64,000 nt of DNA from NCBI GenBank assembly GCA_965215125.1, contig OZ244052.1:1760001-1824000 (forward strand). The letters run 5' to 3'. The notes under the pieces were generated by a model that saw only the letters and a list, made by a program, of their open reading frames with translations, was not told the DNA's origin and did not search any database. The position numbers were made by a program, and so were the translations under genes. Source of the DNA: an uncultured candidatus Porisulfidus sp. Lineage in GTDB: Bacteria > Pseudomonadota > Gammaproteobacteria > Poriferisulfidales > Oxydemutatoraceae. This document shows, one piece after another, positions 26,433 to 36,517 of this stretch (positions are counted from its first letter, which is position 1; the number at the start of each line of letters is the position of its first letter).

Positions 26433-26447
26433 AGCTATTGCATATAA
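25395..26447 (+). CDS. IS481-family DDE transposase
   Basis: HTH VSRSTLYRW; rve core with AMDT, LTDNGSEF, ERFNRTIQEEF, YNFRRPHQSL.YKTP; ORF reads through IRR. Confidence 0.92.
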   Translation: MQNQHIGYRITGFYKIASFSNKTEAMMATDAKQKLNALEFWNKHGLNATQDFVGVSRSTLYRWKKCFDEGGVSALRDASKAPRQHRRRNWSTHISDEIRRLRHSYPNMGAPKIYYFLKPWCDARELQCPKPRTIARLIADASDNMRCSPPKLSKRKHKCKTSQPRNRLSKDAKAQFPGHCVAMDTIHYFVNRTRYYLFTAIDHYSRFAVAITCRRAHSKNAATFARLVDTVFPGNLSQVLTDNGSEFAGDFEAYLQRHNIKHCYTYPRCPKMNAIDERFNRTIQEEFVAHHEDILVTDLAQFNDVLFEYLGRYNFRRPHQSLAYKTPAQQLASFCPHLSNMSWHRTSYCI

Positions 26448-26473
26448 TTTATGTTTGTATATAATAAACGCCC
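26438..26473 (+). promoter_or_regulatory. Putative sigma70 rrn-type promoter for tRNA-Ile/tRNA-Ala/23S
   Basis: TTGCAT-N16-TATAAT (26438-26465) followed by AAACGCCC; a 16-bp spacer is typical of rrn P1 promoters. Confidence 0.6.
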
Positions 26474-26613
26474 TTGCATAGATTATGGCTTTGGGTTTCG
26501 CCTTATATGTTTGACGATGAGGGTCTAGACTTCGGTTGTTGCCGGCTACGGACTGAATGTAGCACAATGGTTATCCGTTAACAACTAACACGAATTGTGC
26601 CAATTTGTTCAAC

Positions 26614-26690
26614 GGGTCTGTAGCTCAGCTGGTTAGAGCGCACCCCTGATAAGGGTGAGGTCGGTGGTTCAAATCCACCCAGACCCACCA
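26614..26690 (+). tRNA. tRNA-Ile(GAT)
   Basis: GGGTCTGTAGCTCAG...CTGATAA...GGTTCAAATCC...ACCA, 77 nt. Confidence 0.97.
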
Positions 26691-26761
26691 AATTAGGAAC
26701 CTGCGTTTCAATGTGCTGGGTTGAAGCATTAAGTTGCTCGGGTTTGAAAGTGATGCAGTGT

Positions 26762-26837
26762 GGGGCCGTAGCTCAGCTGGGAGAGCACCTGCTTTGCACG
26801 CAGGAGGTCAGGAGTTCGAGCCTCCTCGGCTCCACCA
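26762..26837 (+). tRNA. tRNA-Ala(TGC)
   Basis: GGGGCCGTAGCTCAG...TTTGCAC...GTTCGAG...CCACCA, 76 nt. Confidence 0.97.
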
Positions 26838-27072
26838 TTAACCGGGTGCGAATAAAATTGCTTTTGCAATTATGCGGCAGCAATTTTATTCACATTTTGA
26901 GTGTGAAGGTTTTTTTACAATAGAATATTATAGTCAAGGATATACATTGATGTATATGTATGTATATTGCTAATTAATTATTAGTTTCAATTGTTAGTTC
27001 TTAAGATGATAATGGCAAACATTTCGATATATAGTTTATAGCTATATGACGCGAGATTGTTTGAGGTTATAA

Positions 27073-35301: not shown

Positions 35302-35314
35302 ATTCAAGTTGTAT

Positions 35315-36100
35315 TTATCGTATGCTGTTGCCTATTCTAGAAAATCCGATTTGCGCATCTTGATGATTCCAGTTCATCCAAATCAAGAATGCCTTTCCTA
35401 CCAGATTTTGTTCTGGAACAAATCCCCACACTCGGCTGTCGTTGCTGTTATCCCTGTTATCTCCCATTACGAAATAATTGGCTTCGGGAATTTGCCATTC
35501 GTTTTCTAATCCTTTCATGGAAATATCGGCAACGAGGATATTGTGTTTAACATCGCCCAGATACTCGGTTCTCTCGAATAAATCGGTACCGTAAATGTTT
35601 GTGTAAGGTTTGTTGCCGTCTTCCACTTGGGTAATCGGGACACCGTTGATATGCAGTTGTTTGTTTTTATAGACAACCTTGTCGCCGGGAATACCGACAA
35701 CGCGTTTAATATAGTCCTTGGTTGAGTCTTTGGGATAGCGAAAAACCACAACATCGCCTCTTTGTGGCACATCCATTTCTATTAGCGTGTTATGTAACAC
35801 CGGTAGCTTGAGTCCATAAGTGAACTTGTTGACCATAATAAAGTCGCCGATTTCCAAAGTCGGTAGCATTGAGCCCGAGGGGATTCTAAACGGTTCTATG
35901 ATGAAACTTCGTATCAATAGAACGATCAATAGAATTGGGAAGAAAGAAGCTGCGTTATCGGCGATGCGAAAGGATAGGCTGGGTGTTTGTTCCGATTTCT
36001 TATCATAGTCGTCGGACCTGTGATAGACCTTGAGAACCAAAGCAAGCAAGCCGGTGATGACAGTGGCAAGCACTAAAAAGAATTCAAGGTCGTAATCCAT
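35315..36100 (-). CDS. lepB: Signal peptidase I
   Basis: EPFRIPSGSMLPTL, DYIKRVVG.PGD, GDNRDNSNDSR. Confidence 0.96.
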   Translation of the reverse strand: MDYDLEFFLVLATVITGLLALVLKVYHRSDDYDKKSEQTPSLSFRIADNAASFFPILLIVLLIRSFIIEPFRIPSGSMLPTLEIGDFIMVNKFTYGLKLPVLHNTLIEMDVPQRGDVVVFRYPKDSTKDYIKRVVGIPGDKVVYKNKQLHINGVPITQVEDGNKPYTNIYGTDLFERTEYLGDVKHNILVADISMKGLENEWQIPEANYFVMGDNRDNSNDSRVWGFVPEQNLVGKAFLIWMNWNHQDAQIGFSRIGNSIR

Positions 36101-36161
36101 ATACTCTAGAACAAAGAAGAAAACTCTGCTTATCCATGCGGTAGCAGCGTGTCAAATAAAC

Positions 36162-36279
36162 GCTTGGCGGTGTCCTACTCTCACACAGGGAAGCCCTGTA
36201 CTACCATCGGCGATGCGCCATTTCACTTCCGAGTTCGGGATGGGATCGGGTGGTACTAACGCTCTATGGCCGCCAAGCA
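36162..36279 (-). rRNA. rrf: 5S ribosomal RNA, unlinked and on the opposite strand to 23S
   Basis: Minus strand reads TGCTTGGCGGCCATAGAGCG...CCCGATCCCATCCCGAACTCGGAAGTGAAA...GCCGATGGTAGT...GAGAGTAGGACACCGCCAAGC; terminal helix pairs. Confidence 0.96.
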
Positions 36280-36316
36280 AATAAGCTGTTTGCAGTCTTT
36301 GCGACAATCTACCGTA

Positions 36317-36403
36317 TCAATAATTGGCTATAAGATATACTAAGACGACAAAAACTGCGATAAAAGAGACTGTAGCAATTAAGTTAGTTATAGCAGGTTT
36401 CAT
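36317..36403 (-). CDS. Putative 28-aa single-TM small protein MKPAITNLIATVSFIAVFVVLVYLIANY
   Basis: ATG..TGA ORF with AAGGAG RBS 8 nt upstream (36412-36417) and extended -10 TGCTATAAT (36432-36440); too short for the ORF track. Confidence 0.55.
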   Translation of the reverse strand: MKPAITNLIATVSFIAVFVVLVYLIANY

Positions 36404-36517
36404 ATATTTCACTCCTTAAATATTTTTGCTAATTATAGCATAGTTATCATAAAAAAAGAGGGATGAGTTTGTAGATTATCGCATGTCATTCTGCTTTTTT
36501 CTCTATATGCTCTCGAT

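Follow-up and report, generated by a model that had tools for sequence, protein, structure and literature searches.

Unlinked genes for 16S and 23S rRNA, defined by a distance of >1500 bp between the two, are described as common and phylogenetically conserved in the accessible passages of the main survey of this trait (Brewer et al., bioRxiv 10.1101/705046). In those passages the survey scores the 16S–23S relationship only and the term '5S rRNA' is absent from the text; the fate of the 5S gene appears to have been rarely examined in work on unlinked rRNA genes. Judging from the parts of the sources available to us, such genes have also been noted for symbionts (PMC7761764), rrs, rrl and rrf are fully dispersed in Leptospira (PMC2229662), all three rRNA genes are unlinked in Thermoplasma, and the 16S operon of Buchnera includes ORFs (both cited in PMC7761764). 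Here we describe a 64-kb stretch of DNA (C1:1760001–1824000, hereafter the window) from a single-contig genome of Candidatus Porisulfidus (2,220,706 bp, 99 % complete), in which the operon is dispersed over three loci and the only 5S gene is set between coding sequences, directly ahead of lepB, rnc (RNase III) and era. Sequencing runs containing parts of the window are mostly labelled sponge metagenome, and the closest LepB loci belong to metagenome-assembled genomes of Ca. Porisulfidus and Ca. Oxydemutatoraceae (Gammaproteobacteria; 93 % identity). For comparison, we refer to the family Ca. Oxydemutatoraceae as f1 and to its sister families as f2 and f3; g1 denotes Ca. Porisulfidus, g2 and g3 its sister genera, and g4–g6 the other genera of f1. 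The four g1 genomes are termed G000 (this one), G001, G003 and G004.

The stable RNA genes of the window, and the repeat that follows them, are as follows:
26614–26690, plus strand: tRNA-Ile (GAT), found with Rfam and ARAGORN
26762–26837, plus strand: tRNA-Ala (TGC), found with Rfam and ARAGORN
27073–29958, plus strand: 23S rRNA, sole copy (Rfam, 2886 bits, full model)
30013–30060, plus strand: REP-like (repetitive extragenic palindromic) hairpin repeat after 23S, with at least 12 other copies among the best 60 of 87 BLAST matches
36162–36277, minus strand: 5S rRNA, sole copy (Rfam RF00001, 97.2 bits, gathering score 38, model positions 1–120)

The initial annotation had read this region as an rRNA operon split three ways, with no 16S gene ahead of the tRNAs, a repeat hairpin instead of 5S after the 23S processing stem, and 5S on the minus strand about 6 kb away; each of these points was borne out. 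Rfam returned no small-subunit rRNA match in the window, and a genome-wide inventory found one 16S gene (C1:2176398–2177942, plus strand; distance to 23S, 387 kb), one 23S gene and one 5S gene, the latter two being 6.2 kb apart on opposite strands. The 387 kb place the genome among those with unlinked rRNA genes as defined above, and the separation of 5S from 23S that goes with dispersal of the Leptospira type is found both here and in seven relatives (3.3 kb to 1.05 Mb). Past the end of the 16S gene, which reads GGATCACCTCCTT, come a hairpin, one copy of the REP and then ffh; neither tRNA-Ile nor tRNA-Ala is found there. As read from the sequence, the flanks of 23S pair in a processing stem of ~23 bp (27057–27079 with 29950–29973), the 3′ strand of which is kept in relatives. 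At gathering score no remnant 5S was detected beside 23S, and only the 3′ strand of the 23S stem and ~15 nt upstream of 5S (seen in G010) can be aligned with the 23S–5S spacers of outgroups. The fold of the displaced 5S comprises 39 pairs, nine of them with both-sided (compensatory) changes across nine genomes, and all of its helices are kept.

On its own strand 5S is followed, in this order, by five protein-coding genes:
35315–36100, minus strand: lepB (signal peptidase I; Pfam), start codon 61 nt past the 5S 3′ end
34663–35307, minus strand: rnc (RNase III; Pfam)
33713–34666, minus strand: era (GTPase with KH domain; Pfam)
32973–33716, minus strand: pdxJ (Pfam PdxJ)
32608–32976, minus strand: acpS (Pfam ACPS)

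In all nine g1–g3 genomes in which a 5S gene was found, the start of lepB lies on the same strand 20–77 nt beyond it (the shortest gaps, of 20 nt, being those of G010, G013 and G016, followed by 41 nt in G006, 61 nt in all four g1 genomes and 77 nt in G005), and the contiguity of lepB, rnc and era is kept in all relatives examined. None of the eight g4–g6 genomes with a 5S gene has lepB within 1.5 kb of it. As a control, we searched the flanks (up to 10 kb each) of other lepB loci, and found 5S in 0 of 76 (80 gammaproteobacterial loci, 1.4 Mb). The gene lepA is not upstream of lepB but ~690 kb away (C1:1100111–1100431), its place being taken by 5S and a small ORF (smORF). A pattern representing the 5S–lepB junction gave no matches in a metagenome scan, the same pattern fitting seven of the nine known genomes. 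Our literature search found no report of a 5S–lepB arrangement, nor of '5S rRNA' together with lepB, rnc and era, and among the listed papers that name Porisulfidus or Oxydemutator none was seen to discuss rRNA layout. As such, a bacterial 5S gene set between coding sequences ahead of the RNase III and Era genes, and conserved over three genera, appears to be a new arrangement.

Upstream of 5S, two further elements complete the locus:
36317–36403, minus strand: smORF of 28 aa, MKPAITNLIATVSFIAVFVVLVYLIANY, hydrophobic, with Shine–Dalgarno sequence AAGGAG at 36417–36412 and a stop codon 39 nt before 5S
36432–36475, minus strand: promoter-like elements of putative function before the smORF, comprising TCTACA (36475–36470), 18 nt and TATGAT (36451–36446), with an extended −10 TGCTATAAT (36440–36432)

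An smORF of 28–30 aa is found 20–39 nt upstream of 5S in eight of the nine g1–g3 genomes that have a 5S. Within its 87 nt the four g1 genomes differ at eight sites, all eight of them synonymous third positions, and we therefore regard it as coding. The g2 homologue (30 aa) ends 20 nt before 5S, and the aligned promoter site there reads TTGCAA or TTGCGA, 16–17 nt, and TATGAT or TATAAT, being kept despite the GC-rich DNA around it. Homologues also occur in the outgroup genera g4 and g6 at an unrelated locus, which in G014 (L091 4340–4432 and its neighbours) has the order pyrR, smORF, class I methyltransferase, dapF and xerC. As these genera keep 23S and 5S adjacent, the smORF would have moved or been copied when it became linked to 5S. 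Searches of Pfam and NCBIfam with the smORF gave no match even at E=10, and in the ESM Atlas the scores did not exceed 0.82, the proteins matched being small membrane proteins unrelated to it. Among 1.84 billion protein representatives, a profile search returned three matches, all of 30 aa and unnamed. We infer that the smORF is a conserved membrane-peptide gene with a putative sigma-70 promoter of its own.

To place these layouts in the family, we compared gene distances across genomes. The 16S gene is unlinked from 23S in all 15 scorable f1 genomes: in 14 of these both genes are on one contig, 20 kb to 0.8 Mb apart, and in G013, where they lie on different contigs, 50 kb of 16S-free sequence precedes tRNA-Ile. 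In the sister families f2 and f3 the gap is 398–507 bp (10 of 10 genomes). Between 23S and 5S, the gap is 51–267 bp in 17 genomes (g4, g5 and g6 of f1, together with f2 and f3) and 3.3 kb to 1.05 Mb in eight genomes of g1–g3, namely 6.2 kb, on opposite strands, in G000, 5.9 kb in G003, 1.05 Mb in G001, 1.03 Mb in G004, 3.3 kb and 5.4 kb in the g2 genomes G010 and G013, 111 kb in G005 and 44 kb in G006. On a maximum-likelihood tree of 23S (19 genomes) the eight genomes with a 23S–5S split fall on one side of a branch with support 88/92, so that a single origin suffices; their sister is G009, a g6 genome in which the two genes are adjacent. The lineage thus presents a dated stepwise series, from a standard operon (sister families) through the 16S split (family) and the 5S split (one clade) to a local inversion (one species), and shows the dismantling of an rRNA operon without functional loss. 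Two observations on individual rRNA genes were made in passing. The 23S gene of G006 (L087 2061–5188) measures 3128 nt against 2884–2888 nt in relatives, which suggests an insertion (intervening sequence) of ~240 nt; and G015 has a second, weak 5S-like match (G015:C1:1936139–1936254, 48 bits) 1 kb downstream of its normal 5S, which may be a decaying duplicate.

The local inversion is delimited by synteny among the four g1 genomes:
30061 to ~40600, no strand assigned: block of ~10.5 kb whose orientation in G000 is the reverse of that in G001, G003 and G004 (BLAST synteny)

Its left breakpoint, 30060/61, is the 3′ edge of the REP hairpin, which is kept after 23S in G003, G001 and G004; the right breakpoint falls in unique sequence within 40593–41314, and no inverted repeat pairing both ends was found. 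In G001 and G004 the block aligns in reverse from 40593 to 30404 and the alignment then continues forward from 41314 or 41348, and in G001 the segment 30128→30060 is found at the block's far end with its orientation reversed. G003 matches window positions 26438–30058 (97.8 %) and continues with two glycosyltransferase genes, three sulfotransferase genes and an smORF–5S–lepB…ugd stretch that corresponds to window positions 38440→31572 reversed. From these alignments, G000 alone carries the inversion (~30061 to 40.6–41.3 kb). In G001 and G004 the whole block has also moved ~1 Mb away, and 23S there is followed by sequence found at 1855215 in G000.

The initial annotation had proposed a recent inversion of about 30015–36300, with one breakpoint at a repeat copy, as the event that split an intact 23S–5S pair, and had suggested synteny with relatives as a check. 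The geometry is appealing, as flipping that interval puts 5S behind 23S, and the comparison confirmed that G000 does carry an inversion whose left breakpoint coincides with the edge of the hairpin. The proposed extent, however, has to be abandoned: the inverted block reaches 40.6–41.3 kb, and undoing it does not restore adjacency but leaves 23S, ~4–5 kb of genes for a thiamine pyrophosphate (TPP)-dependent enzyme and sulfotransferases, and smORF–5S–lepB on the same strand. This is the layout of the un-inverted close relative G003, with its 5.9 kb between 23S and 5S, and also that of G010 and G013, where the cargo is a TonB-dependent receptor gene. Since un-inverted relatives still separate 23S and 5S, the detachment came before both the genus and the inversion. 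In addition, upstream of 5S lie the smORF and sulfotransferase genes rather than 23S flank, and the 5S–lepB junction is common to nine genomes of three genera, hence inherited. We thus consider it very improbable that the inversion detached 5S; the comparison of sequences indicates that the 5S layout is inherited across three genera, with 5S either cut off from 23S through the insertion of genes or relocated together with short flanks. Even less credible is an assembly artefact, in which an assembler misled by repeats would have concealed a true order with 5S after 23S or 16S before the tRNAs. The 3′ junction of 23S does lie in dense repeats that the listed Logan contig pieces leave unspanned, but it is identical in four independent Porisulfidus assemblies, in each of which the 23S unit runs into the REP hairpin and no 5S follows. 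The Logan contigs of four runs, belonging to two studies, span 31563–37062, 35264–40438 and 35067–36526 with no differences, and run from acpS through lepB, 5S and the smORF to the sulfotransferase genes, confirming the joins between lepB, 5S and smORF. Moreover, G004 fuses the TPP-enzyme gene upstream straight to the tRNA-Ile leader with 16S absent, and the genome holds only one 5S and one 16S gene.

The explanation that we favour, and judge on the whole to be probable, combines this stepwise dispersal with production of 5S from within an smORF–5S–lepB–rnc–era transcript, the latter part being argued from spacing and conservation. Across the family, 16S would have been unlinked from tRNA-Ile–tRNA-Ala–23S, which kept or acquired a promoter of its own. 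In the ancestor of g1–g3 a few kilobases of protein genes would have split 5S from 23S, leaving it between the ORF for a 28–30 aa membrane peptide and lepB–rnc–era–pdxJ–acpS, and in G000 only the ~10.5-kb block would then have inverted with its left breakpoint at the REP hairpin, so that 5S points away from 23S. The sigma-70 promoter before the smORF would drive 5S as an internal part of an smORF–5S–lepB(–rnc–era…) transcript, from which it would be excised by the usual 5S-maturing endonucleases, probably through RNase E-type cuts in its U-rich flanks; the releasing cut would also make the 5′ end of the lepB–rnc–era message, and in g1 a weak hairpin after 5S may attenuate read-through. Such an arrangement predicts a mixed mRNA–rRNA precursor. 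Two genomes, G010 and G013, leave just 20 nt between the smORF stop and 5S and another 20 nt between 5S and the lepB ATG, too little for a terminator and a promoter, and one transcript is the simplest reading. Promoter-like sites stand before both tRNA-Ile and the smORF, and 5S seems, from sequence, to share a unit with the smORF and lepB. The flanks of 5S are U-rich in all genomes compared, which fits RNase E-type cuts as known from 9S processing in E. coli. Folding of nine genomes with RNAalifold gave no consensus processing stem around 5S; all it recovered were the helices of 5S itself and, on the 3′ side, a weak hairpin of 4 bp. By eye, flank pairings of CGGUAG with CUACCG in g1 and of GCGCG with CGCGC in g2 can be drawn, as candidates only.

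Several points weigh against this explanation. The branch support of 88/92 for the split clade is not decisive, and the repeat-rich stretch 29958–30220, like the repeat cluster at 31.4–31.6 kb, is spanned by no listed Logan contig piece. G006 lacks the smORF, which is thus not needed for the 5S–lepB arrangement. Transcription of 5S at rRNA level would over-express lepB–rnc–era unless attenuated, and the hairpin with its U-rich run in the g1 gap is possibly a terminator; G005 has a GC-rich hairpin followed by UUUUAU. These last points are also the strongest for a stand-alone 5S, driven by a promoter before or in the smORF and ended by a terminator, with lepB–rnc–era served by a promoter of their own that escaped recognition and the adjacency being inherited synteny between uncoupled genes; stoichiometry favours such a separation, and hairpins with U-rich tails follow 5S in both g1 and G005. 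The g1 structure, within a gap of 61 nt, is a stem of 5–7 bp with a 12-nt loop, with a U-rich tail in G000 and G003 that G001 and G004 lack, and an attenuator or terminator at this place is possible. Against it, the hairpins after 5S do not exceed shuffled sequence in stability (z −1.7 to +0.5), no terminator-like hairpin follows 5S in G010 or G013, and the consensus scan lists no terminator in the g1 gap either. The same scan found no sigma-70-like site between 5S and lepB in g1, none was seen by eye in the 3′ part of 5S in G010 and G013, and the 20 nt from 5S to the conserved lepB start in these two genomes are too short for both signals. A stand-alone 5S therefore strikes us as rather unlikely, if worth keeping in mind. 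Returning to 5S as part of the lepB–rnc–era transcript, a bolder version, which we put forward as a speculation with the odds well against it, is that 5S took over the role of regulatory leader, such that the cuts freeing pre-5S, be it by RNase E or by RNase III acting on a stem in the flanks, determine the 5′ end of the RNase III/Era message and how stable it is. If true, the output of two factors for ribosome biogenesis would be tied mechanically to that of 5S, in a bacterial analogue of the 'punctuation' of mitochondrial mRNA by stable RNAs that has been fixed for three genera.

The 23S unit itself begins next to a mobile element:
25292–26432, plus strand: insertion sequence (IS) of 1141 bp, with an rve-type transposase ORF at 25395–26447 (Pfam rve/HTH) and termini TGTACA…GTACA
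26420–26465, plus strand: promoter region of the tRNA-Ile/tRNA-Ala/23S unit, of putative function (consensus scan, four-genome alignment)

The suggestion that this unit has a promoter of its own agrees with the alignment, in which homology among the four Porisulfidus genomes begins at 26438 irrespective of upstream context, with the promoter-like site TTGCAT (26438–26443), 16 nt and TATAAT (26460–26465), presumed to be functional. In G000 the IS lies just upstream of this site. A second site, the top-scoring one of the consensus scan, consists of ATGGCA (26420–26425, within the IS end), 17 nt and TATAAT (26443–26448), so that the IS end and the leader may form a hybrid promoter. The element has the features of a DDE (rve) insertion sequence, namely an rve transposase, terminal inverted repeats, a target duplication (5-bp AGCTA at 25287–25291 and 26433–26437) and multiple copies, there being nine full copies in the genome, each flanked by its own 5-bp duplication. 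At the tRNA-Ile leader it is present in G001 (identical junction; 83 % identical to the G000 copies) and absent in G003, which has unrelated DNA there, and in G004, in which the TPP-enzyme gene is joined directly. We considered the IS as a cause of the 16S split and rejected this, since G003 and G004 lack it there and the 16S split extends to the whole family; it is a later insertion. The IS/leader junction is shared by G000 and G001, but the 23S tree pairs G000 with G003, which implies recurrent insertion or loss. In contigs from three runs of two studies the right end of the IS is joined head-to-tail to its left end with CCCC between; together with the preceding base this gives ACCCC, the target duplication of two other IS copies. 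Such joints suggest IS circles or tandem dimers, and hence an active IS. Within the leader, 26565–26585 reads CCGTTAACAACTAACA and is identical in the four genomes; we take it to resemble the boxA of rrn antitermination.

Other features of the inverted block and its edges are:
31384–31610, no strand assigned: cluster of repeats resembling miniature inverted-repeat transposable elements or REPs, with >100 genomic matches per position and a depth spike in contigs
36518–37456 and 37485–38444, minus strand: two tandem sulfotransferase paralogues (Pfam)
38675–40528, minus strand: TPP-dependent, acetolactate-synthase-like enzyme, the outermost gene of the inverted block (Pfam, synteny)

The repeats at 31384–31610, 30158–30254 and 30246–30285 comprise a ~130-bp unit (>100 matches), the REP hairpin (dozens) and a 97-bp unit (~8 copies), and short repeats crowd the region downstream of 23S and the ugd-side end of the block in all Porisulfidus genomes. 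The number of tandem sulfotransferase genes varies (two in G000 and G004, three in G003 at L006 6675–9578, four in G001 at L004 5225–9584), with pairwise identities of 59–83 %. The ORF at 31639–32493 (plus strand, 284 aa) encodes a UDP-glucose/GDP-mannose dehydrogenase whose N-terminal domain matches from profile position 65, with no C-terminal domain detected; three congeners have the ORF at 92–93 % identity, and the gene may be one that was truncated yet kept.

The end state of this dispersal is unusual in that the genome's one 5S gene, which is essential, has coding sequences close on both sides, at distances down to 20 nt, and stands just ahead of those encoding RNase III and Era. This state bears on how rRNA stoichiometry is kept with three genes under three promoters. 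On the practical side, amplicon methods that span the 16S–ITS–23S (internal transcribed spacer) part of the operon, and binning checks based on 23S–5S linkage, will fail for this symbiont family.

Compared with the unlinked 16S and 23S genes described previously, the present case is alike in being a conserved trait of a host-associated organism with a single rRNA copy; it differs in that 5S is split off too, and Ca. Oxydemutatoraceae is not named in the passages seen (Brewer et al., 10.1101/705046; PMC7761764). With Leptospira and Thermoplasma it shares three rRNA genes at separate loci; those, in the parts of the sources available, are described as separate genes, whereas here 5S is wedged between protein genes with gaps of 20–77 nt, in a gammaproteobacterium whose sister families have a standard operon. 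In Gammaproteobacteria lepB commonly belongs to a cluster lepA–lepB–rnc–era–recO–pdxJ–acpS, and in E. coli RNase III autoregulates the rnc leader. The order lepB–rnc–era–pdxJ–acpS is the same here; unlike in that cluster, lepA is 690 kb off, 5S and the smORF stand upstream of lepB, and era abuts pdxJ in g1. Co-transcription of a stable RNA with a protein gene is known from the tRNA–tufB operon of E. coli. With that operon and, as far as the accessible passages describe it, the Buchnera 16S operon, the present locus shares a stable RNA with, a few bases behind it, a protein gene lacking a promoter signal of its own. Neither of these involves lepB or rnc, whereas the gene found here is a bacterial 5S, flanked by coding sequence on both sides and conserved in this position over three genera.

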